Source: a virus. Taken from it: a DNA stretch of 64,000 nucleotides. Location: the IMG/VR virus record IMGVR_UViG_3300021225_000468, positions 64,958 to 128,957 of that record; one strand, 5' to 3'. Below, piece after piece: positions 30,187 to 58,367 of the stretch. The number at the start of each line of letters is the position of its first letter. Within the stretch, counting starts at the first letter, position 1. Made by a program: the position numbers and the translations under genes. Under the pieces are notes generated by a model. That model was given only the letters and a program-made list of their open reading frames with translations, made no database searches and had not been told where the DNA came from.

Positions 30187-31083
30187 ATGAAACTTTTATC
30201 ATTACTTTTTGAAAATAATAGTTACAAAACATCATACACAGGTGTCATTTTAGATAAGAATTCTACAAATAAAATATTAGAAATTGTCGATGTTCCGACA
30301 GGATGGAAACCTATCGCTCATCATATGACGATATCTTTAGGTGGAATACCTGAACAATTCAAAGATTTGTTAGGGAAAAAACAAACTTTACGAATCACTA
30401 AATTGGGTAAATCCGATAAAGCAATTGCATTAGGTGTTGATTCCAATCTAAGTTTGAATAAAATACCACACATAACTGTTGCAATTAATACCTCAATAGG
30501 GGCTAAAGCAAAAGATAGTAATGAAATCACAGAATGGGAAGAAATTGAACCATTTGAAGTGATAGGTTATGTAGAAGAAGTTCTATATCAACCACCATTT
30601 AAAACATCAGGTACACCAAAAGTATTAAACGTATTCGATTTTGACGGAACACTCATGGATTCACCAACACCTGAAGTTGGTATGCCATTATATAAAAAAT
30701 TAACAGGTAATGATTGGCCGTACAAAGGATGGTGGGGTAGATTGGAAAGTTTGACATCTTTTGATGTTAAACCTTTAGAGAAAACTAAAGAATTATATGA
30801 AAAATATACTTCAATACCTGATTCAGTAAATGTTTTGATGACAAATCGTATCGCTAAATTTGAAAATGTAGTAAAAGACAAACTCAAAGATTATTATGTT
30901 TTTGATTATTACGACTTCAAAAACGACCAAAGAGAAAAACCTGACAGAATATCTGAAATCTTGAAAAACAATCCCACAATACAACAAGTCAACATATTTG
31001 ATGATATGGAAGAACAAATAATTAAGTTCCAAAATTTCAAAGAAAAACACCCCGAATTGGAAATAAACATCTTTAAAATATAA
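30187..31083 (+). CDS. RNA-repair-type fusion: 2H phosphoesterase plus HAD phosphatase (HAD_SAK-like)
   Basis: HHMTI and PHITV (two HxT motifs); FDFDGTL..SP, GWW, LMTNR, IFDD. Confidence 0.75.
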   Translation: MKLLSLLFENNSYKTSYTGVILDKNSTNKILEIVDVPTGWKPIAHHMTISLGGIPEQFKDLLGKKQTLRITKLGKSDKAIALGVDSNLSLNKIPHITVAINTSIGAKAKDSNEITEWEEIEPFEVIGYVEEVLYQPPFKTSGTPKVLNVFDFDGTLMDSPTPEVGMPLYKKLTGNDWPYKGWWGRLESLTSFDVKPLEKTKELYEKYTSIPDSVNVLMTNRIAKFENVVKDKLKDYYVFDYYDFKNDQREKPDRISEILKNNPTIQQVNIFDDMEEQIIKFQNFKEKHPELEINIFKI

Positions 31084-32859: not shown

Positions 32860-33010
32860 AGAAGAATTTTGGTCAGAACTTTTGTCAGAACTTGATTCAG
32901 AACTTCATGCAGAACTTTGGTCAGAACTTTGGTCAAAACATCGGTCAGAACTTGATTCAGAATTTGATATAGAACTTGAAAGAGAAATAAAATCAATGAT
33001 TGATGGATAA
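32846..33010 (+). CDS. Array mini-gene 4 (not in ORF track)
   Basis: MNTIKEEFWSELLSELDSEL...EREIKSMIDG, 54 aa. Confidence 0.75.
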   Translation: MNTIKEEFWSELLSELDSELHAELWSELWSKHRSELDSEFDIELEREIKSMIDG

Positions 33011-33173
33011 AAATAGAAAAGAACTTTCGTCAGAACTTGATTCTAAACTTAATTCTAAATTTCATTCAGAACTTGATTGGAAACTTCATTTAGACCTTTG
33101 GTTGGGATTTGATTCAGAACATTATATACAACTTCAAAGAGAAATAAATTCAATAATAGATGGCAACTATTAG
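33003..33173 (+). CDS. Array mini-gene 5 (not in ORF track)
   Basis: MDKNRKELSSELDSKL...QREINSIIDGNY, 56 aa. Confidence 0.75.
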   Translation: MDKNRKELSSELDSKLNSKFHSELDWKLHLDLWLGFDSEHYIQLQREINSIIDGNY

Positions 33174-36728: not shown

Positions 36729-37012
36729 GCTCCGATGATGGAACTGGGAGACATGAAGGACTTATACAATTTGAGTGCTTAGGAGGAAACTCCTAATGTA
36801 GAATTCCGTAAATTCGGTGAACCCTGAAATGGGAATACCGAGCCAAGCCTTAGAAATAAGGAAGGTGTAGAGACTAAACACGGAACACCTAAATCGAAAG
36901 ATATGGTGAAGATATAGTCCAGACCACAAACAGAGATGGTAGCGAAAGCTATAGTGGTAAGAAAATCCTTTTCGCAGTAATGTGAGTGCGGGTTCGAATC
37001 CCGCTTGGAGCA
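36729..37012 (+). tRNA. trnL: tRNA-Leu(UAA), intron-containing (exons 36729-36763 and 36962-37012)
   Basis: Acceptor GCTCCGA/TTGGAGC-A; spliced anticodon arm AAGGA-CTT^AAAA-TCCTT; long variable arm; GGTTCGAATCC. Confidence 0.9.
36764..36961 (+). mobile_element. Group I intron (198 nt, no ORF) in the tRNA-Leu anticodon
   Basis: Follows U and ends in G; core elements AAATTCGGTGAA (P), AATACCGAGC (Q), GTAGAGACTA (R), AAGATATAGTCC (S). Confidence 0.88.
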
Positions 37013-37049
37013 CTTTAACACTGTTTCTTTGAAAAAAAGGAGTATAAAA

Positions 37050-37328
37050 ATGGATATATTATCATTTGTTTTAGGAATTGGAGCAGTAGTGGTTGTAACT
37101 GGAAATATAGTTGCTATTGTTTCTTTTGTTAAGGTGAATAATCAAAGAACAGAATTAGAAAGTCTAAAAGAATCTATGTCACGAAGAGCCGATGAATTTG
37201 AGTTTTCAATTTCTCGTCAATTTGAAAATGAACATAGAGATAGAGAAAGTATAGTTCACGAAATTTATAGAACTATAGATTCCAGACTTGATAAACTTGA
37301 AAATAAACTTAAAGGCGAAAAGCCATAA
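37050..37328 (+). CDS. Membrane-anchored coiled-coil protein
   Basis: N-terminal TM helix followed by coiled coil. Confidence 0.65.
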   Translation: MDILSFVLGIGAVVVVTGNIVAIVSFVKVNNQRTELESLKESMSRRADEFEFSISRQFENEHRDRESIVHEIYRTIDSRLDKLENKLKGEKP

Positions 37329-37391
37329 ACAATAAATAAAAAGTTTAAAGAAATAGTGTTAAATTAGGGGGGACAACAATTCCCCCTTTTT

Positions 37392-37465
37392 GGTCCCGTA
37401 ACTCAGATGAATAGAGTGCAATCCTTCTAAGATTGAAGTCACAGGTTTGAATCCTGTCGGGACTA
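37392..37465 (+). tRNA. tRNA-Arg(UCU)
   Basis: GGTCCCG/CGGGACT-A; CAATC-CTTCTAA-GATTG; T-loop TTTGAAT. Confidence 0.88.
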
Positions 37466-37586
37466 CTGATTCAGTTTGCCCGTGGTAACGACCCGTTAGG
37501 AGAAATTCTAACGGGTTTCTGTAATCAAAATCCAAGCGATGTCTCACTGTTGTTTGGGCTAAATGTGAGGAAAAAACGGGATGTTT

Positions 37587-37657
37587 AGTCAGGTGGTGTA
37601 ATGGTAGCATAACAGACTTTGACTCTGTTTGTATAGGTTCGAATCCTGTCCTGACTG
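37587..37657 (+). tRNA. tRNA-Gln(UUG)
   Basis: AGTCAGG/CCTGACT-G; ACAGA-CTTTGAC-TCTGT; GGTTCGAATCC. Confidence 0.82.
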
Positions 37658-37744
37658 CTAGGTAAGTTCCATGTAAAATGTCAGGGTCTATGAACATGGT
37701 GACCACTAGAAAGAGAGTTGACAGCTGGAAACGAGACAGCAAAT

Positions 37745-37857
37745 AGTCAGGTGGCGGAATTGGTAGACGCTATGGTTAGACTGGATAGCAACCAGCATAC
37801 GGCTTTGTAACAAGCACCGAAGGTAGCACCATACAGGTTCAAATCCTGTCCTGACTA
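37745..37857 (+). ncRNA. tRNA-like RNA A (anticodon loop replaced by a multi-hairpin domain)
   Basis: AGTCAGG/CCTGACT-A, D-arm GGCGGAATTGGTAGACGC, ATGGT/ACCAT stem enclosing three small hairpins, T-arm ACAGG-TTCAAAT-CCTGT. Confidence 0.75.
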
Positions 37858-37887
37858 CATACATTTAAAAATCAAAAAACGATTAAA

Positions 37888-38043
37888 ATGTTAAACATTA
37901 CAATCAAAACAGAAAACGGCTCACGTTCTTTAGGCTTCAGCCAAATTTTAGTAGATTATATTACTAAAACTGAAAGATGGAATTATGTATTCGATTGTTT
38001 AGTTAATGGAAATAGAATAGACAAAACTAATTGGGATTATTAA
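37888..38043 (+). CDS. Small hypothetical protein between tRNA-like RNAs
   Basis: 51-aa ORF (MLNITIKTEN...) filling the spacer. Confidence 0.5.
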   Translation: MLNITIKTENGSRSLGFSQILVDYITKTERWNYVFDCLVNGNRIDKTNWDY

Positions 38044-38048
38044 AATAC

Positions 38049-38149
38049 AGTCAGGTGGTGAAACAGAGCAGACGCAGCTAACCGATGGCAGATTGATACG
38101 TTCGGAAGGCGGTAAATCAATCGTACAGGTTCGAATCCTGTCCTGACTA
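38049..38149 (+). ncRNA. tRNA-like RNA B
   Basis: Same acceptor and T arm; shrunken GCTA-ACCGA-TGGC arm; long GATTGAT/ATCAATC arm. Confidence 0.72.
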
Positions 38150-38194
38150 CTATGGGTTGGTTCACACTATACAACGAATAGAGGAAGTGTAAAC

Positions 38195-38306
38195 AGTCAG
38201 GTGGCGAAATTGGTAGACGCTAACGTCCCGTGTAAGAGTGTCAGGTATGCATGGTTAGCCGAAAGGTAAAGATACTCACTTACAGGTTCGAATCCTGTCC
38301 TGACTA
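38195..38306 (+). ncRNA. tRNA-like RNA C
   Basis: Same acceptor, D and T arms; about 60-nt non-canonical centre with a CC-GAAA-GG hairpin. Confidence 0.72.
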
Positions 38307-38314
38307 CTAAATAC

Positions 38315-38420
38315 GGGGTGAGTTCTTGTTTGGGTTAGACTCCCAAGTATCGGTTGTAACCGAGAGGAATATCGGAATAAAAGGTCGCTCCTTAAATGGG
38401 TTCGAATCCCATCCACCCCA
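38315..38420 (+). ncRNA. tRNA-like RNA with a different acceptor stem
   Basis: GGGGTG/CACCCC-A, T-arm ATGGG-TTCGAAT-CCCAT, hairpins TTGGG/CCCAA and TCGGT/ACCGA; no 7-nt anticodon loop. Confidence 0.55.
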
Positions 38421-38432
38421 CAAAATAGTATT

Positions 38433-38567
38433 ATGATGAGACGAGTTGTAAAAAGTAAAATAGGGTATTTTTCAATACTAAATCCAACCAAAGTTATCAG
38501 AGCATGGAACAAGCACAAAGCAGCTAAAAAACTTAAAACAGAAATTAACAATATAAGAGAGAAATAA
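38433..38567 (+). CDS. Small basic hypothetical protein
   Basis: 44-aa ORF filling the spacer between tRNA-like RNAs. Confidence 0.4.
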   Translation: MMRRVVKSKIGYFSILNPTKVIRAWNKHKAAKKLKTEINNIREK

Positions 38568-38572
38568 AATTT

Positions 38573-38721
38573 GGTCAGGTGGCGAAACTGAGCAGACGCT
38601 GTGAGAGTATGTGTATGACTCCGTTAGGTTCGTGTATCGATATTAACGAGAATTAGTAGATGAATTCAAAGATAAAAGCACATACAAAATCTACATACAG
38701 GTTCGAATCCTGTCCTGACTA
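38573..38721 (+). ncRNA. tRNA-like RNA D (longest insert)
   Basis: GGTCAGG/CCTGACT-A; insert of about 95 nt closed by GTATGTG/CACATAC; canonical T arm. Confidence 0.72.
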
Positions 38722-38736
38722 CAAAAAATAAAAGTT

Positions 38737-38946
38737 ATGTTGGAAAAAGATTTAGAAGTATACGATGTATGGGAGTCTCCAAATGGTAACCTTTTTATCA
38801 AGGTTTGTGATGAATTTTCAATTGCCATTGGTGCTAAAGGGAATCACGCACCTAACTTTGAATTGAGAGAGTTGGAGAGAAGTCAATACGTTAAATCAAG
38901 CGATGTCGTACCAGTAAAAAAAGTAGGGAAGATAGTATTTGATTAA
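38737..38946 (+). CDS. Hypothetical protein
   Basis: 69-aa ORF filling the spacer. Confidence 0.6.
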   Translation: MLEKDLEVYDVWESPNGNLFIKVCDEFSIAIGAKGNHAPNFELRELERSQYVKSSDVVPVKKVGKIVFD

Positions 38947-38950
38947 AAAC

Positions 38951-39060
38951 AGTCAGGTGGCGAAATTGGTAAACGCTATCCTCGCAAGGGAAATGGAGAA
39001 GCCTACTAAGTAAAGTCCTGTGGTAAAAGTCCAATGCAGGTTCGAATCCTGTCCTGACTA
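38951..39060 (+). ncRNA. tRNA-like RNA E
   Basis: AGTCAGG/CCTGACT-A; TCCT-CGCAA-GGGA arm; TGGA/TCCA-closed extra domain; T arm. Confidence 0.72.
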
Positions 39061-39073
39061 CAAAAATGATATT

Positions 39074-39256
39074 ATGAAATACCATCAAAGGTTTATTGAA
39101 TCTCAACGAAGAATTGATTGGTATATTGATGGATATCATGTACATTGCATACCACATACGGTATTCAAAAACATGCCGACTGAAAGAATTGTTGAACTTT
39201 ACAATGTTGATATGTCTTATTTTAGACCAATAAATTGCTCTTGTCCTGACTACTAA
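39074..39256 (+). CDS. Hypothetical protein ending in a tRNA 3'-end remnant
   Basis: 60-aa ORF whose last codons are TGTCCTGACTAC. Confidence 0.5.
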   Translation: MKYHQRFIESQRRIDWYIDGYHVHCIPHTVFKNMPTERIVELYNVDMSYFRPINCSCPDY

Positions 39257-39385
39257 CAAATAAACAAAAATGGACTATTGTTATTTATAAATAAAAATAT
39301 TAGACAAACCCACGCTTCCCATCTCGAAGGATAATGAAGAGAATAATACGTCTCCTAAGGTTTGTCTTCTTTTAAACTAAATAAT

Positions 39386-39583
39386 ATGAGCAAAATTCCT
39401 ATTGGCAGATATGAAGATGGTAGCATTAAACATTGCTACTTTCGGAGGAGTAAACACAATCGAATTAAACGAAATGGATTTAGTAAGATTAGATATAGAA
39501 TGTTTATTGCAGGTTGGATTAAACAAGAATCTGCAACTGACAGATACATAGAAAGACAAAAAACAAATAATCATGATAAATGA
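39386..39583 (+). CDS. Small basic hypothetical protein
   Basis: MSKIPIGRY... ORF overlapping the next gene. Confidence 0.5.
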   Translation: MSKIPIGRYEDGSIKHCYFRRSKHNRIKRNGFSKIRYRMFIAGWIKQESATDRYIERQKTNNHDK

Positions 39584-39824
39584 AGTAACAAAAGTATTCT
39601 CTGACATGACTGATTTGGAATTGTCACATGCTATCAGAGAAATGAAAGAAGATGGACCTAAGGGTATTATTCGTGAAAACGGTGTTGTTCGTGAAAAGTG
39701 CAAAATGGTACAGATAATTACTGGTGCAACAACTGCTTATGAACATCTTATGATGACTCAGTTTTCAATCTTACAAGAAGCTGCATATCGGTTTACACCT
39801 AACTTAGATTTACTACATAAATGA
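39573..39824 (+). CDS. Hypothetical protein
   Basis: 83-aa ORF. Confidence 0.6.
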   Translation: MINEVTKVFSDMTDLELSHAIREMKEDGPKGIIRENGVVREKCKMVQIITGATTAYEHLMMTQFSILQEAAYRFTPNLDLLHK

Positions 39825-39938
39825 AGTTTATGCAAAAATTCATAACACATATTCTATATCCCTTTCTGTCAGTAATGGCGATTTTTGCCTTTTGGTTAAT
39901 CGCCATAGAAATACAAAAAATGAGAAAGACTAAATAAT

Positions 39939-40030
39939 GGTCAGGTGGCGCAGGGGTAGCGTATTGGTGAGTAATCCGTTTCATCGGAACCAAAAGACAA
40001 GGGTCACAGGTTCGAGTCCTGTCCTGACCG
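39939..40030 (+). ncRNA. tRNA-like RNA F
   Basis: GGTCAGG/CCTGACC-G (compensatory G1-C72), D-arm GCGC/GCGT, TTGGT/ACCAA stem extended by a bulge and TCCG/CGGA hairpin, T arm. Confidence 0.72.
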
Positions 40031-40105
40031 CTTAAAATATTATTGACAATTTTTTTGTTAATAATTTTTATTTTTGTACATTTAACTATTAAACAAAATT
40101 CAAAA

Positions 40106-40765: not shown

Positions 40766-41899
40766 ATGAAAAGGGTAAAGATAACACCAAGAAATGGTTG
40801 GCAGAAGAAGGTTGAATCTCTCGGATTCGGATTTCATTCAACCAATGTTCCATATTGGGACGAATCTGCATACTATCAATTTAGTATGGATGAAATACTT
40901 GCTATTGAAAAAGCAACCGAGAATTTATGGGAAATGTGTTTGAATGCTGTTCAATATGTCATTGATAATGACATGTATGATAAGTTCAAGATACCATCAT
41001 GGATGATACCCATGATTGAAAAATCTTGGAACGAAGACCATCCCTCAATCTATGGTAGATTTGATTTGGCAGTAAAAAATGGTCAAATTAAAATGCTTGA
41101 GTTCAATGCCGATACACCAACAAGTCTATATGAGACAGGTATTGTGCAATGGTTTTGGCTCCAAGATTTTGATAAAGACAAAGACCAGTTCAATTCCGTT
41201 CATGAAAAGTTGATAGCATATTGGGAATATCTCAAAGATTATCTTTACAAACACAAAGTTCATTTTGCATGTGTTAAGAAAAGTCTTGAAGATTTAACCA
41301 CGGTTGAATACATGAGAGACACCGCCATGCAAGCAGGATTGGATACCAAACTTTTATTTATTGATGATATTGGATGGGATTCCGATAGAAGAGTTTTTGT
41401 TGACATGGAAGAGGAGGATATCAAAAACATATTTAAACTTTATCCATGGGAATGGTTGGTTGAAGAACAGTTTGGTAGAAATATTGAAATTGATTCAAAT
41501 CGAGCATTGTGGATTGAACCATCATGGAAAATGATTTTGTCAAACAAAGCGATTCTTCCAATTTTATGGTATCTCAATCCTAACCATCCACTTCTTCTCA
41601 AGTCATATTTCGACCAAGGTGATTTGGTTGATTATGTCAAAAAACCAATTCTTTCAAGAGAAGGTTCAAATATCCAAATCGTTAAAAACGGTGAGGTCAT
41701 TGAAAAGACAGGTGGTGAATATGGTAACGAAGGGTTCATCTATCAAGAACTTTTTGAACTTCCTGAATTTGACAACAACCGAGCATTAATCGGAAGTTGG
41801 GTAATCGGACAAGAACCTGCGGGTATGGGAATACGTGAACAAGAATCACTCATCACAGGAAATCTATCAAGGTTTGTACCACATCTAATTCAAGATTAA
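40766..41899 (+). CDS. Glutathionylspermidine synthase family ATP-grasp ligase (YgiC/YjfC-like)
   Basis: YWDESAYYQF, YGRFDL, EFNADTPTSL.E, FKLYPWE, SNKAILP, KPILSREG.N, GIRE. Confidence 0.92.
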   Translation: MKRVKITPRNGWQKKVESLGFGFHSTNVPYWDESAYYQFSMDEILAIEKATENLWEMCLNAVQYVIDNDMYDKFKIPSWMIPMIEKSWNEDHPSIYGRFDLAVKNGQIKMLEFNADTPTSLYETGIVQWFWLQDFDKDKDQFNSVHEKLIAYWEYLKDYLYKHKVHFACVKKSLEDLTTVEYMRDTAMQAGLDTKLLFIDDIGWDSDRRVFVDMEEEDIKNIFKLYPWEWLVEEQFGRNIEIDSNRALWIEPSWKMILSNKAILPILWYLNPNHPLLLKSYFDQGDLVDYVKKPILSREGSNIQIVKNGEVIEKTGGEYGNEGFIYQELFELPEFDNNRALIGSWVIGQEPAGMGIREQESLITGNLSRFVPHLIQD

Positions 41900-52453: not shown

Positions 52454-52525
52454 GCCCCTAAAGCATATATGGTGATGCACCTGACTTGTAATCAGGAGAA
52501 ACAGATTCGAGTTCTGTTGGGGGCT
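52454..52525 (+). tRNA. tRNA-Thr(UGU)
   Basis: GCCCCTA/TGGGGGC-T; CCTGA-CTTGTAA-TCAGG. Confidence 0.88.
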
Positions 52526-52537
52526 CTCTTAAAATAT

Positions 52538-52612
52538 CGGGTAATGGGCTAACTGGTAAGCCTCCACGTTTGGGACGTGGACATCATGGGAGTTCGAATC
52601 TCTCTTACCCGA
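52538..52612 (+). tRNA. tRNA-Pro(UGG)
   Basis: CGGGTAA/TTACCCG-A; CCACG-TTTGGGA-CGTGG. Confidence 0.9.
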
Positions 52613-52703
52613 CAGTTGAATTTTACGTTCTAAATCAAAAAAATAAATATCATACCTCAAAAGGTATGATATTTGTATTTATTATAATACAAAAAAAATT
52701 ACT

Positions 52704-54970: not shown

Positions 54971-55790
54971 TACGGGCGGTCTATAGTCCATTTCCCTCGC
55001 AAGAGGGGATAAAGATAAACCATGAAAGTGGTATAAAGTGACTTGTTTTGGTTAAGACAGGTTGCGGTTCATCGAAAGATGAACTTGAGTAGAAAAGCGA
55101 GATATCATTAGACCTTGATTACCGAGGGTGACACTGTAGGGAAAGTGGTTTGATGACCAAGCGATGTGGGTCGTTTGGTTGAGGTGGGAACACCAATAAG
55201 AATAACTCGTAGAACTGTTGCAAGAAATATGGTCATCCAACCACATAATTGCGGAGTTCAATATTAAGGTGGTCTTAAAACCGAAAGGTAAGACTTCGTA
55301 CAGGTGGTGCTGTTGTGGTCCTTATCAAACACCTACCAAGGTGTTAGATATGAAGACAACCTAAAATATGGAGACAGGGATGTCTCAGAGAGTAGTTGTG
55401 TATTTTGTGGTTCAAAAGACTGCAAAGCACTGGTGACGGACCACTACTTTCATAATCCACAAACCAAAAACTTGCATTGTTATTGCAAAATAAAAATCAA
55501 GGAAAAGCGTCCGTCAGTTGTAATCGACAGGTCACTACTTAGTTACGAGATGTTCGTAGCCGTGAAAGGTCCCAAGCCTAACACGATTTTTATGAAAGTT
55601 CTCTAATCTCGCAAGGATTAATTGGGGAGGCATCCTCGAAGAGTAACAATTAGTAAGAGAGTGGTTTACAACTCAAGGATTGGTTAATCTAATTGACCGT
55701 GACTGAGGATTACTTCTCAAAAGGAAGTGGATATGAAGGGAACCAATAATCCTTCTAAAGATTCTCAATAAAACTTGTAATCTCAGAGTT
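54971..55790 (+). ncRNA. Large structured ncRNA, probably GOLLD-like (boundaries approximate)
   Basis: About 820 nt, GC-richer than its flanks, many hairpins (CCCTC-GCAA-GAGGG, ACCAT-GAAA-GTGGT, GTTCATC-GAAA-GATGAAC, ACC-GAAA-GGT), own promoter and terminator; size and phage/tRNA context fit GOLLD. Confidence 0.68.
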
Positions 55791-56897: not shown

Positions 56898-58367
56898 TTA
56901 TATCAATTTTTTCATCATCTGTTTAATCTCATTTATTTGTGAATTGACTTTTGTATTCTTTGCAATTTCAATTGCTTCGTCATAAGTTAAATTTGGATTT
57001 TCATAATATGCATCTTCAACTGCCGCAAGTGCAACTCCAATATCTTTTCCAGGTTTGAAACCAATATTTATTAAATCTTTACCATTTATGGGAAATTTTG
57101 GTTTTTTTGCGTCTATTTGCTGATTTAATTTATTTAATCTATCTCTAACAATTACAATTTGTTCAGGCATTGATGAATGTTCACTATGTGCAATATTATC
57201 CGCATGAATCAAATCTAAAATGTCTTCCAAGTTATCACCAACTGTAACCATAAATTTTCTGAGAGTTTTATCAGAAACATTTGATGCATCAGGTCCACCA
57301 TGTTTCAATTTCATGTGTTGTTTTACTCCCATAACAACAGCATCAATCAACTCGTTTGGATATTTTAGTCGTTGCATTATTTTCTTTACCATATCCGCAC
57401 CAACATCTTCATGTCCATAGAAATGTACAGTTCCCTCAGGTGATATTGTTTTGGTTAATGTCTTACCAATATCATGAAATAACCCCATTAATCTCGTTTT
57501 CAAATTTGCAGGTGTTTTTGACAAAACATCCATACTATGCATGAAAACATCATCTTTATGATGTACATTTTGTTTCATACCAACAGCATCATTGAATTCG
57601 CCAACTATATGTGATAATAATCCCGTTGCTTTTAATAATCTAAAACCTTTTTTAGGGTCAGGAGATACTAATATTTTATCAATTTCATCACGAATACGTT
57701 CTGAAGAAATGTTATTGATTAAATCTGCATGTTTTTTAATACTTTTTAGAACTTGTGTGTCAAACTCAAAACCATATTTACAGGCAAATCTAATCGCCCT
57801 CATCATTCTTAGAGCATCCTCCTTGAATATGACTTCAGAGTCCTGTGTTGTCCTTATTATTCCGTTTTTAATGTCCTCTATACCCTTACCACTAATATCT
57901 AATATTTCTCCCGTGGAAACGTTTTTAAGAAGACTGTTGATTGTTAAATCGCGTCTGTAAGCATCATCTTCAATATCCCCCGCAGTAACCATTGGTTTTC
58001 TTGAACCATGTAGATACACTTCTTTTCTTGGTGCAACAAACTCTAATTCTAATGGTGGTAAATTTTGATTATTATTATTTAATGATAATTTTGCAGTACC
58101 AAATTTTGGATAAACAACAGGATTACTTTCATTTTTGAAATTACCCAATGATTTTGCTAACCATGTTGCAAAATTTATACCCGCATCCAAACTACCAATA
58201 ATTGTAAAATCTAAATCTTTGGGGGTTTTTCCCATTATTTCATCACGGACAGCTCCACCTGCAAGAAACACTTTATTTTCCCATTCTGTACCTTGAATTT
58301 TGTTTTTCAAAAATTCTAAAACAGTATATTCATCTGTTGATTCTAATAACAAATTTTTTAATCTCAT
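56898..58367 (-). CDS. cca: CCA-adding tRNA nucleotidyltransferase with HD domain
   Basis: LAGGAVRD...DLDF, DAYRRDLTINSL, EDALRMMRAIRF, ERIRDE, FHDIGK, FYGHE. Confidence 0.9.
   Translation of the reverse strand: MRLKNLLLESTDEYTVLEFLKNKIQGTEWENKVFLAGGAVRDEIMGKTPKDLDFTIIGSLDAGINFATWLAKSLGNFKNESNPVVYPKFGTAKLSLNNNNQNLPPLELEFVAPRKEVYLHGSRKPMVTAGDIEDDAYRRDLTINSLLKNVSTGEILDISGKGIEDIKNGIIRTTQDSEVIFKEDALRMMRAIRFACKYGFEFDTQVLKSIKKHADLINNISSERIRDEIDKILVSPDPKKGFRLLKATGLLSHIVGEFNDAVGMKQNVHHKDDVFMHSMDVLSKTPANLKTRLMGLFHDIGKTLTKTISPEGTVHFYGHEDVGADMVKKIMQRLKYPNELIDAVVMGVKQHMKLKHGGPDASNVSDKTLRKFMVTVGDNLEDILDLIHADNIAHSEHSSMPEQIVIVRDRLNKLNQQIDAKKPKFPINGKDLINIGFKPGKDIGVALAAVEDAYYENPNLTYDEAIEIAKNTKVNSQINEIKQMMKKLI

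Follow-up and report, generated by a model that had tools for sequence, protein, structure and literature searches.

Genes for RNAs with a tRNA Frame and Unrelated Inserts in Place of the Anticodon Arm in an Uncultured Freshwater Phage

Introduction

The tRNA-like and stable RNAs of phages T4 and T5 have been known for decades (about 50 years), and no function is known to have been assigned to them. The closest known counterparts of the RNAs described here are RNA1 and RNA2 of phage T5 and rnaC of phage T4. RNA1 (144 nt, 30501–30644) and RNA2 (125 nt, 32959–33083) are encoded inside the tRNA island of the T5 genome (NC_005859). Both are absent from Rfam and are annotated as "tRNA-like stable RNA with unknown functions", so that no explanation of mechanism can be taken from them. 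The tRNA cluster of the T4 genome (NC_000866) includes, at 70908–71171, rnaC (species 1, 139 nt), annotated as "small, stable RNA", and rnaD (species 2), both adjoining phage tRNAs.

The same architecture has been built by hand. In the tRNA scaffold of Ponchon and Dardel for recombinant RNA (PMC3753655), a structured RNA of foreign origin takes the place of the anticodon arm, and the chimera is reportedly processed and stabilised like a tRNA. This scaffold follows the same principle as the elements reported below, but it is man-made and uses one frame. Among bacterial RNAs, the YrlA-type Y RNA joins an effector-binding module to a tRNA-like one that has acceptor, D, and T arms; the YrlA of M. 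smegmatis is cleaved by RNase P and receives CCA, and the authors proposed that the tRNA fold protects against nucleases (PMC4201824).

Here we describe six genes for RNAs with the outer frame of a tRNA and unrelated inserts (cargos) replacing the anticodon arm in an uncultured freshwater phage. The window analyzed was a stretch of 64,000 nucleotides, positions 64,958 to 128,957 of IMG/VR record IMGVR_UViG_3300021225_000468.

tRNA Island and Constant Frame

The elements belong to a tRNA island, which also comprises tRNA-Leu (intron-bearing), tRNA-Arg, and tRNA-Gln genes at 36729–37658 (Table 1). The 10-base 5' motif RGTCAGGTGG had seven matches, all on the plus strand and each at the start of one of the seven elements of Table 1; the shuffle mean was 0.03, and none of 100 shuffles reached seven. 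For the 24-base 3' end, 0.00 matches with up to three mismatches were expected and eight were obtained. One of the eight belongs to tRNA-Arg, where it covers the T arm and the acceptor (37442–37465); each of the other seven has a 5' motif as its partner. The AGUCAGG/CCUGACU acceptor with the ACAGG T arm occurs in the window in five exact copies and two variants. Thus, the seven elements with common tRNA ends anticipated by the original prediction were recovered.

Table 1. Features of the tRNA island and related genes in the window
Feature	Position	Strand	Evidence
Canonical tRNA-Gln(UUG), 71–72 nt, acceptor stem and T arm shared with the cargo elements, discriminator G	37587..37658	+	ARAGORN; RF00005, 66.1 bits
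tRNA-framed RNA, 113 nt, Leu-type D arm, A73, cargo 37771–37832 (62 nt)	37745..37857	+	End motifs; RF00005, 37.7 bits, 38-nt insertion skipped
tRNA-framed RNA, 101 nt, GG-less D loop, A73, cargo 38076–38124 (49 nt)	38049..38149	+	End motifs
tRNA-framed RNA, 112 nt, Leu-type D arm, A73, cargo 38221–38281 (61 nt)	38195..38306	+	Relatives, alignment A1, RNAalifold
tRNA-framed RNA, 149 nt, G1-U72, GG-less D loop, A73, cargo 38600–38696 (97 nt)	38573..38721	+	Relatives
tRNA-framed RNA, 110 nt, Leu-type D arm, A73, cargo 38977–39035 (59 nt)	38951..39060	+	RF00005, 40.5 bits, 43-nt insertion skipped
tRNA-framed RNA, 92 nt, G1-C72, non-Leu D arm with GG, discriminator G, cargo ~39963–40005	39939..40030	+	End motifs
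Canonical class II tRNA-Leu(UAA), group I intron of ~198 nt in the anticodon loop	36729..37012	+	RF00028 at 36754–36942, 61 bits; tRNA-end scanner
tRNA-Arg(UCU), 3' T arm/acceptor strand three positions off the shared 24-base end	37392..37466	+	ARAGORN, Rfam
Remnant of the frame 3' end: 12/12 acceptor 3'-strand bases and flank	39238..39253	+	Direct reading; ORF list
CCA-adding enzyme, 489 aa: PolyA_pol head, RNA-binding, HD, and tRNA_NucTran2_2 domains	56898..58367	-	Domain matches

A 7-bp acceptor stem and a 5-bp T stem with a UUCRANY loop were present in all seven elements. An anticodon arm with a stem of 5 bp and a loop of 7 nt (U33, purine 37), on the other hand, was found solely in the element at 37587. 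RF00005 matched the elements at 38951, 37745, and 38195 at 36–40 bits, skipping an insertion of 38–48 nt at the site of the anticodon arm; no RF00005 match was obtained for those at 38049, 38573, and 39939 even at E ≤ 1. The ARAGORN and RF00005 results confirmed that the element at 37587 is the single canonical tRNA and that the other six (92–149 nt) have no anticodon arm. ARAGORN forced a 93-nt "tRNA-Thr(AGT)" on the element at 39939, the anticodon stem of which has, by eye, one mismatch and two G-U pairs; the folding z of the whole element was -2.42.

The frame retains the 7-bp acceptor stem, the D stem, the T arm, U48, and a conserved base at position 26. Discriminator A73 occurs in five of the six cargo-bearing elements, as had been claimed, but the Leu-type D loop ascribed to the same five was present with its G18G19 only in three (37745, 38195, and 38951); a GG-less variant loop was found at 38049 and 38573, and another type of D arm at 39939. 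The compensatory G1-C72 pair noted earlier in one element was correct and belongs to the last of these. Five small ORFs lie on the same strand between the elements (37888–38043, 38433–38567, 38737–38946, 39074–39256, and 39362–39937). The remnant at 39238–39253 now codes for the final codons of the fourth of them.

The inserts could be introns removed to yield normal tRNAs, and the same island does contain a real group-I-intron tRNA-Leu(UAA). This gene served as an internal control: both exon halves were recovered with the anticodon stem and the variable arm intact, and its acceptor stem is unlike the shared frame. In the array, however, no intron family matched 37300–40100 at E ≤ 1, and at 43–97 nt the inserts are smaller than introns of group I or group II. 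Their removal leaves no anticodon stem or loop, so that splicing could not restore one. No insert-less joint was seen in the contigs; the joints that were seen have different inserts flanked by the same frame ends, and this was so in a DNA run too. We therefore give the splicing explanation virtually no weight.

Comparison with Known RNAs

Like the stable RNAs of T5 and T4, the elements lie in a tRNA island and carry tRNA-like ends around a non-tRNA interior. T5 RNA1 resembles the frame in its acceptor-like helix, T arm, an interior of ~80 nt in place of the anticodon arm, and a Leu-type D arm differing by a swapped D-stem pair. T5 RNA2 and the frame have an unbroken stretch of 17 bases in common, in the T arm and the strand after it, and the T-loop-like hairpin in the interior of RNA2 has parallels in some family members. 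Unlike the elements, both T5 RNAs have other acceptor sequences and interiors and are single genes rather than an array on a constant frame; blastn detected no similarity. T4 rnaC has, at its end, a canonical T arm with a 3' strand after it, whereas neither rnaC nor rnaD has an evident Leu-type D arm or any sequence in common with the elements; rnaD further differs in encoding its own CCA and in lacking a T arm.

tmRNA also combines a tRNA-like acceptor and T-arm domain with a large insert and has no anticodon, but the elements contain neither a tag reading frame nor G3-U70. ARAGORN with the -m option found six tRNAs and no tmRNA in the whole record, and Rfam found no tmRNA in the window. As regards YrlA, the ends of that RNA form the Ro60-binding stem and its gene lies within 4 kb of a Ro60 gene (PMC4201824), whereas the ends of the window elements form the acceptor stem. 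No TROVE gene was found in the record, which is 41% complete. The Ro-related motif GNCGAAN0-1G showed no enrichment in the family cargos (4 of 105 versus 2.15 ± 1.36 expected) and occurred in one of the five window cargos tested (the one at 39939 lay outside the set).

Conserved Cargo of the Element at 38195

The cargo at 38195 consists of a small 5' hairpin, a 7-bp helix (38236–38242 with 38271–38277), a conserved internal region that includes a palindrome of six bases, and a hairpin with a GNRA cap. It recurs in marine and freshwater phages, in the same frame type in loci L150, L156, L159, and L158, and in a different frame in L154, L157, and L160. The second frame is Cys-like with U73, and its acceptor and T arm are common to a phage tRNA-Cys(GCA).

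Six sequences from IMG/VR, Tara, and other metagenome contigs were aligned (alignment A1; two further loci, L156 and L160, are identical copies). With a structure over frame and cargo that was partly derived from the same six sequences, and with the second frame represented by two rows, all 168 of 168 cells were paired, and both sides had changed in 14 of 28 pairs. Compensated pairs occurred in the cargo helix (4/7), the acceptor (5/7), the D stem (2/3), and the T stem (3/5). None of 500 shuffles reached the observed values on four of five measures; the fifth, "further pair types", was reached by 492 of 500. Slid controls had 24–37% of cells paired, and RNAalifold predicted the same cargo helix from the alignment. 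The cargo is a conserved base-paired module, and a frame of different sequence and discriminator carries it as well. Since such a module is found in different tRNA frames, the insert, and not decoding, looks like the working part.

The frame helices covary where the frame sequence changes, both here and in the relatives of the element at 38573. This bears on the explanation that the copies are DNA-level repeats, i.e., decaying tRNA-Leu pseudogenes, recombination hot spots, or small mobile elements with acceptor strands as terminal inverted repeats. Several dispersed copies with identical ends, the 3'-end remnant fused to an ORF, and the homing endonuclease genes in the tRNA islands of T4 and T5 speak for it. 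Against it, the helices are maintained via G-U pairs and compensatory changes that make sense only in plus-strand RNA, conservation extends to the nucleotides that make tRNA tertiary contacts, all seven copies have the orientation of the genes around them, and the constraint on the frame is stronger than that on a pseudogene would be. We consider this explanation very improbable.

Other Cargos

Of the six cargos, five were searched for relatives, and these were found for two. The cargo at 38573 has a long predicted closing helix and is ~93% identical in its three relatives (L164, L165, and L166). No compensatory change was found in the cargo helices of these relatives, and three predicted pairs were broken. 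Covariation of inserts in related phages was therefore obtained for the cargo at 38195 but not for that at 38573. In the frames of the same three relatives, G7-C66 is replaced by A-U, pair 1-72 varies, and A73 is replaced by U73. An 11-nt motif of the cargo at 38049 is common to an element of L121 and was also found in a stretch of L152 outside any frame. An 18-mer scan of IMG/VR gave no relatives of the cargo at 37745 and one match for that at 38951, which was unrelated or due to chance.

When the five cargos of the Leu-type frames were folded alone, z was -1.36 (38049), 0.08 (38951), 0.37 (38195), 0.34 (37745), and -1.99 (38573); four of the five fold no better than shuffles as single sequences. 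The inserts had been described as apparently base-paired, which is weak by single-sequence folding and has comparative support for one cargo (38195).

Wider Family

The exact 24-base 3' end was found in at least 120 IMG/VR contigs. At least 168 distinct elements of 69–289 nt were collected, comprising the seven of the window and at least 161 from elsewhere (read-throughs of adjacent copies account for two of the 161). A scan of 185,579 species genomes placed the 24-mer in 18 contigs, all from metagenome-assembled genomes (MAGs), and in no isolate genome. Sixteen of the 18 gave 20 elements, and each of these sixteen carried cargo-bearing elements and no host tRNA. The family is very large and is seen in phage contigs and MAG contigs only.

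A recognisable Leu-type D arm was present in 101 elements among the matches listed, and this arm is nearly constant though outside the search pattern; in 94 of the 101 the cargo begins with T or A, and in 91 it ends with T. A T immediately precedes the 5' end of 154 of 190 elements, and the A-rich 3' flank is conserved. C follows the discriminator in 185 of 190 elements, but the next base is C in merely 8 of 190; therefore, CCA is not encoded. Of the tRNA-Leu genes called by ARAGORN in the loci listed, 29 of 37 have other acceptor stems and look canonical by eye, and the window has an intron-bearing tRNA-Leu(UAA) of its own. The elements are thus unlikely to be degraded copies of the tRNA-Leu genes of these phages.

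In a set of 211 long tRNA-like elements, 22 cargo clusters were distinguished, five of which, including one probable artefact of parsing, occur in at least two frames. The mean folding z of the cargos was -0.65 (n = 93, t = -6.6), and GUAA was enriched (48 of 105 cargos versus 32.8 ± 4.4 in shuffles). A closing helix common to the cargos was not found (2.31 versus 2.17 ± 0.10), and crude counts of cargo hairpins were the same as in shuffles. No accompanying protein family was found near the elements, the largest being present in 17 of 121 sources in the loci listed.

Elements separated by ORFs might act as processing punctuation, their folds recruiting RNase P and a 3' nuclease, cutting a polycistronic transcript, and freeing the mRNAs of small ORFs. 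The five intervening ORFs, the conserved U at -1 and A-rich 3' flank, and the few terminator-like sites within the array are in line with this. For this purpose a minimal frame would do, yet cargos of 43–97 nt are kept, one of them with covariation in other phages. Moreover, the five intervening ORFs that reach the 50-aa cut-off of the clustering have no homologue in the other 120 loci listed, and many elements of other phages lie between closely spaced tRNA genes with no ORF in the gaps. The processing signals proposed earlier are conceivable but do not account for the conservation of the cargo, and we regard punctuation as quite unlikely to be the main role.

Proposed Function

The six elements are probably non-decoding, tRNA-framed small RNAs of the phage tRNA island, with the frame as the carrier and the cargo as the working part. 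Natural tRNA-scaffold RNAs, the core of the original prediction, fit all the tests: the frame helices covary, the anticodon arm is missing, and one covarying cargo occurs in two frames. The best reading of these comparisons is that the elements would be a natural counterpart of the engineered tRNA scaffold, securing tRNA-type maturation and stability for portable RNA modules. The elements would be transcribed together with the neighboring tRNAs and cut at the 5' end by RNase P, for which U at -1 is favored. The 3' end would then be trimmed and CCA added by the host enzyme or, in this phage, by its own. The latter is encoded here, as predicted, but as a family trait it fails, being present in one of 49 other carrier records and one of six near-complete genomes. 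The tRNA fold would confer nuclease resistance, and the cargo, placed where the anticodon and variable arms should be, may act in trans on a host or phage factor. Cargos would turn over and be exchanged between frames and between phages.

Bacterial leucyl-tRNA synthetase (LeuRS) is not known to read the anticodon. The frame itself could be the active part, charged by LeuRS or binding EF-Tu, RNase P, the CCA enzyme, or defence toxins that target tRNA ends (as an aminoacyl carrier or decoy), with the cargo as filler that removes the anticodon. Most members keep the Leu-type D arm, U48, and A73, the near constancy of the D arm outside the search pattern points the same way, and the tRNA-like module of M. 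smegmatis YrlA is cut by RNase P and receives CCA (PMC4201824). We nevertheless find an active frame unlikely. One cargo occurs in both Leu-like A73 and Cys-like U73 frames, two window elements have no G18G19, and neither compensatory pairs nor near-invariant blocks of 60 nt would persist in filler from marine to freshwater phages. A73 is not kept throughout: U73 was found in the second frame of the 38195 cargo and in the 38573 relatives, and this switch in the latter makes leucine charging unlikely as the purpose. With neither discriminator nor frame type constant for a given cargo, the role of aminoacyl (Leu) carriers suggested previously is unlikely. That of anticodon-nuclease decoys found no support: the cargos contain no anticodon-loop mimicry, with two hairpins bearing anticodon-like 7-nt loops versus 3.25 ± 1.8 in shuffles, and in the wider family 4 of 83 first hairpins have 7-nt loops. 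Antisense matches to the phage's own genome and a dependence on GOLLD were not supported either.

Returning to cargo-carrying scaffolds, a bolder version is possible, although on balance we doubt it. Interchangeable frames (Leu-like, Cys-like, and others) might form a plug-and-play RNA display carrying a large, fast-turning library of structured modules, namely trans-acting effectors that bind protein or RNA and serve host takeover or counter-defence. On this view, the tRNA machinery would mature an arsenal of six different effectors from the array, and the orphan stable RNAs of T4 and T5 would be the first known members. If the cargos are effectors, they would represent a new class of phage regulatory or counter-defence RNAs and a natural precedent for the RNA scaffolds of biotechnology.

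Such tRNA-like RNAs make up a modular family of very large size among uncultured phages, and what is new here is that the insert can be a conserved folded module moving between tRNA frames. This movement suggests that the insert is what functions, and it opens the old T4/T5 question to experiment, with RNA1 and RNA2 of T5 as tractable models and conserved cargos such as that at 38195 as defined baits for partners. Family members and a few exact pieces of the region also occur in contigs X18–X20 from RNA libraries; such libraries can contain DNA, and contigs give neither the ends nor the levels of an RNA. In two related loci, L067 and L076, tmRNA genes adjoin family members.

The tRNA-framed array and its genomic setting

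The tRNA-framed feature at 37587–40030 is real: the predicted array was confirmed in the window. In its elements, named here by their start positions (37587, 37745, 38049, 38195, 38573, 38951, and 39939), the acceptor stem, D arm, and T arm of a tRNA (the frame) enclose an insert (the cargo) in place of the anticodon arm; element 37587 is a tRNA-Gln. The 5' motif RGTCAGGTGG had seven matches in this region, all co-oriented, against a shuffle mean of 0.03, and none of 100 shuffles reached seven. The common 24-base 3' end (T arm and acceptor strand) was matched eight times with at most three mismatches (0.00 expected), the eighth match lying in the preceding tRNA-Arg. The coordinates, lengths, G1–C72 pair, and discriminator bases of the original prediction were all correct on checking. 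Leu-type D loops, assigned there to all five elements with discriminator A73, were present with GG in three of them, whereas 38049 and 38573 had a GG-less variant.

Element 37587 was identified by ARAGORN as tRNA-Gln(UUG) and scored 66.1 bits with the Rfam tRNA model. ARAGORN forced 39939 into a 93-nt tRNA-Thr(AGT) and left the remaining five elements uncalled. Elements 38951, 37745, and 38195 matched the Rfam model at 36–40 bits, only with 38–48 nt skipped at the anticodon-arm site; 38049, 38573, and 39939 had no matches to this model even at E ≤ 1. Splicing of the inserts to give normal tRNAs is excluded by anatomy, because the insert-less form would have no anticodon arm. True spliced-gene anatomy was found next door, in the intron-bearing tRNA-Leu(UAA), from which the cargo-bearing elements differ; both exon halves of this gene were recovered, and its design is known in cyanobacteria and plastids.

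The IMG/VR record of the window is 128,957 bases long and is estimated to be 41% complete. A tRNA island consisting of tRNA-Leu(UAA), tRNA-Arg(UCU), and then tRNA-Gln lies directly upstream of the array (Table). Small ORFs between the elements had no Pfam or PHROG matches. The GOLLD RNA is flanked by tRNA-Thr and tRNA-Pro on one side and by the CCA-enzyme gene on the other.

Table. Features in and around the array (window positions)
Feature	Position	Strand	Remarks
Class II tRNA-Leu(UAA)	36729–37012	+	~198-nt group I intron in anticodon loop; missed by ARAGORN
Group I intron, Rfam match	36754–36942		within tRNA-Leu(UAA)
tRNA-Arg(UCU)	starts 37392		
Common 3' end in tRNA-Arg	37442–37465		eighth match
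Spacer preceding tRNA-Gln	37492–37586	+	
TTGACA-like box and hairpin	37716–37744	+	small hairpin, GAAAGA-type loop
Motif of the 38049 cargo	38095–38112		11-nt motif
Palindrome of the 38195 cargo	38246–38251		6 bases
Extra tRNA-like element	38316–38421	+	between two frame elements
Small ORF	39074–39256		
Frame 3'-end remnant	39238–39256	+	last six codons and stop of the small ORF
Glutathionylspermidine-synthase-like gene	40766–41899	+	Pfam E 2e-149; directly downstream of array
tRNA-Thr and tRNA-Pro	52454–52613		
GOLLD RNA	55388–55789	+	318 bits, whole 416-position model
CCA-adding enzyme	56898–58367	−	489 aa

Several smaller features accompany the array. The extra tRNA-like element differs in its acceptor helix, which contains one mismatch. 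It has a canonical T arm and lacks a D arm, and its interior forms three hairpins, one with a 7-nt loop; a search for its relatives gave none beyond the T arm. From its sequence, the small ORF ending in a frame remnant looks as if it has replaced most of a frame element. The TTGACA-like box and hairpin immediately 5' of frame element 37745 have counterparts in seven related loci (L008, L016, L027, L041, L063, L076, and L078); they directly precede a frame element in the window and in all of these loci except L016. The hairpin stem covaries across the loci, and the unit may be a promoter or processing motif. The spacer preceding tRNA-Gln was also found in contigs of two RNA libraries, and in one relative it runs straight into a Leu-type frame element with no tRNA-Gln; thus, leader and frame combine modularly.

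Contigs with family members, together with a few exact pieces of the window region (e.g., 39038–39359 in contig X18), were found in three RNA libraries; their ends, strand, and level are not readable and DNA is possibly included, so that they give no verdict on expression. Among the joints listed for these contigs, none was insert-less.

Family size, distribution, and constant parts

The exact 24-base 3' end occurred in at least 120 IMG/VR contigs. Its pairing with the 5' motif yielded 168 distinct elements of 69–289 nt, seven in the window and 161 elsewhere, two of the latter being read-throughs of adjacent copies. ARAGORN forced tRNA calls on 40 of the 168, many of them odd-looking by eye. 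A scan of 185,579 species genomes located the 24-mer in 18 contigs, every one a MAG contig; elements (20 in all) were recovered in 16 of these, each of which holds cargo-bearing elements, and none is a host tRNA. The family is large, and all its observed members come from phage or MAG contigs. ARAGORN made 37 tRNA-Leu calls in the family loci, and 29 of these tRNAs, canonical by eye, have different acceptor stems and do not use the shared one; therefore, the frame elements did not arise by decay of the tRNA-Leu genes that these phages carry.

The builders of the tRNA elbow and core were all retained in the family. Among 101 elements with a Leu-type D arm, the base 3' of the D stem was T or A in 94, and a T directly before the T stem, at the place of U48, was found in 91. 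The base preceding the 5' end was T in 154 of 190 elements. A C followed the discriminator in 185 of these 190 elements but stood at the next position in just eight, which indicates that CCA is not encoded. The retained elbow and core would be consistent with RNase P, 3' nucleases, and the CCA enzyme recognising the elements. Maturation by the phage's own CCA enzyme had been suggested; this enzyme is indeed encoded in the window, but it is not a family trait, being present in only 1 of 49 other carrier records and in one of six near-complete genomes. A few members carried an additional D-loop hairpin where residue 17 would lie.

A cargo shared between two frames

Short segments of the 38195 cargo, used as scan queries, revealed relatives in IMG/VR (locus L150, and L149 with its start cut off) and in metagenomes (L156, L158, and L159, a Tara record included). 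The same cargo was found in a second frame (L154, L157, and L160) with other acceptor, D-stem, and T-stem sequences and with U as the discriminator; the acceptor and T arm of this frame are common to a phage tRNA-Cys(GCA) in L161. The homologous block starts at the D stem and ends at the T stem; the moving unit is thus the anticodon-plus-variable region.

Six sequences were aligned, L156 and L160 being identical copies of included rows. With a structure named by us and partly derived from the rows themselves, and with the second frame represented by two rows, 168 of 168 cells were paired, and 14 of 28 pairs had changed on both sides. On four of five measures, none of 500 shuffles attained the observed value; on the fifth, further pair types, 492 of 500 did. 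In slid controls, just 24–37% of the cells paired, and RNAalifold independently gave the same helices. Within the cargo, four pairs of a 7-bp helix were compensated, and the GNRA-capped hairpin showed a G-U to G-C change in one row. In the frame, compensation affected 5/7 acceptor, 2/3 D-stem, and 3/5 T-stem pairs. These data support the core of the original prediction, that the elements are natural tRNA-scaffold ncRNAs: the 38195 cargo covaries and sits in two frames. The portability of one window cargo across frames, together with the negative association tests described below, is what is new in this analysis.

The palindrome of this cargo was invariant in the six aligned relatives, in both frames, which is partly ascertainment, since the scan pattern contained it; such a sequence could mediate RNA dimerisation.

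Other cargos

Relatives were also found for the 38573 cargo. Its 97 nt were ~93% identical in three relatives (L164, L165, and L166), with no compensatory change and with three changes disrupting predicted pairs; absence of conservation or covariation in relatives, which would have spoken against the tRNA-scaffold reading, was thus countered, among the six window cargos, in full by the 38195 cargo and by half here. Across the frames compared, G7-C66 changed to A-U and the 1-72 pair took all three pair types; the D loop of L164 contains GG, and A73 is replaced by U73 in L165 and L166. No relatives were found for the 37745 cargo or for the 38951 cargo, the latter with one chance match. The search with the 38049 cargo returned one chance match in coding sequence and one motif outside any frame. 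The motif of this cargo is also present in a frame element of L121; outside a frame, it recurs as a longer 18-base match downstream of a tRNA-like gene (L152:13600–13660). When the region was compared with GenBank phages by blastn, only its tRNA-Gln matched (six records).

Cargo length ranged from 17 to 140 nt, with a median of 55. Cargos folded slightly better than their dinucleotide shuffles (mean z −0.65, n = 93, t = −6.6); five window cargos were singly unremarkable (z of −1.36, 0.08, 0.37, 0.34, and −1.99). GUAA was enriched (48 of 105 cargos vs. 32.8 ± 4.4), and a general closing helix was rejected (2.31 vs. 2.17 ± 0.10). Of 211 distinct long tRNA-like elements from all fetched loci, 156 had cargos without a relative within the set, and the remaining 55 formed 22 cargo clusters. 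Two or more frames occurred in five of the 22, one of the five probably being a parsing artefact; two more cargo bodies recurred with other acceptors by eye. Rfam families were absent from the cargos of the window region at E ≤ 1, and in 20 related loci, with 62 elements between them, Rfam gave only tRNA and tmRNA.

Functional readings

The functions suggested in the original prediction were mostly weakened. If the elements were decoys for anticodon nucleases, anticodon-like hairpins would be expected in the cargos; they numbered 2 vs. 3.25 ± 1.8, and this reading was rejected. An aminoacyl-carrier role had been proposed; for a given cargo, Leu-like A73 alternates with Cys-like or plain U73, so that the amino-acid identity of the frame is not kept per cargo and a role dependent on leucine charging is unlikely. 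The interpretation left standing is that the frame serves to carry RNA modules with a function.

Tests of other associations and modes of action also gave no support. GOLLD was found in 4 of 49 other carrier records (L042 left out) and in none of six near-complete genomes and is therefore not required. No dedicated neighbor protein emerged, the largest ORF cluster occurring in only 17 of 121 sources. The glutathionylspermidine-synthase-like gene had no adjoining tRNA-like array in its two closest IMG/VR relatives (61–65% identity). Ro60-binding cargos (Y-RNA module) were rejected by test. As for antisense pairing with the phage's own genome, the longest complementary runs were 10–13 nt, against shuffled means of ~11 and maxima of 13–16, which is no more than chance gives.

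Relation to known RNAs

Word searches of open-access text found no paper on phage RNAs that combine variable cargos with an unchanging tRNA frame. The family is a variant of known but unexplained phage tRNA-like stable RNAs. RNA1 and RNA2 of phage T5 ("tRNA-like stable RNA with unknown functions") and rnaC and rnaD of T4 ("small, stable RNA") are annotated within tRNA clusters, and none of the four is in Rfam. T5 RNA1 has the Leu-type D loop of the family, with one D-stem pair swapped and an interior of ~80 nt; T5 RNA2 has 17 T-arm bases in common with the family frame, and the 3' end of T4 rnaC is a canonical T arm. In bacterial YrlA RNAs, the tRNA-like module can be cut by RNase P and given CCA, and it may shield the attached effector-binding module; YrlA-like RNAs in 22 phages are listed there, which might bear on an overlap with the family (PMC4201824). 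GOLLD and ROOL are reported close to phage tRNA islands (PMC12286853). In our loci, tmRNA genes (~69 bits) were found adjoining frame elements in two such islands (L067:553–939 and L076:5724–6218).
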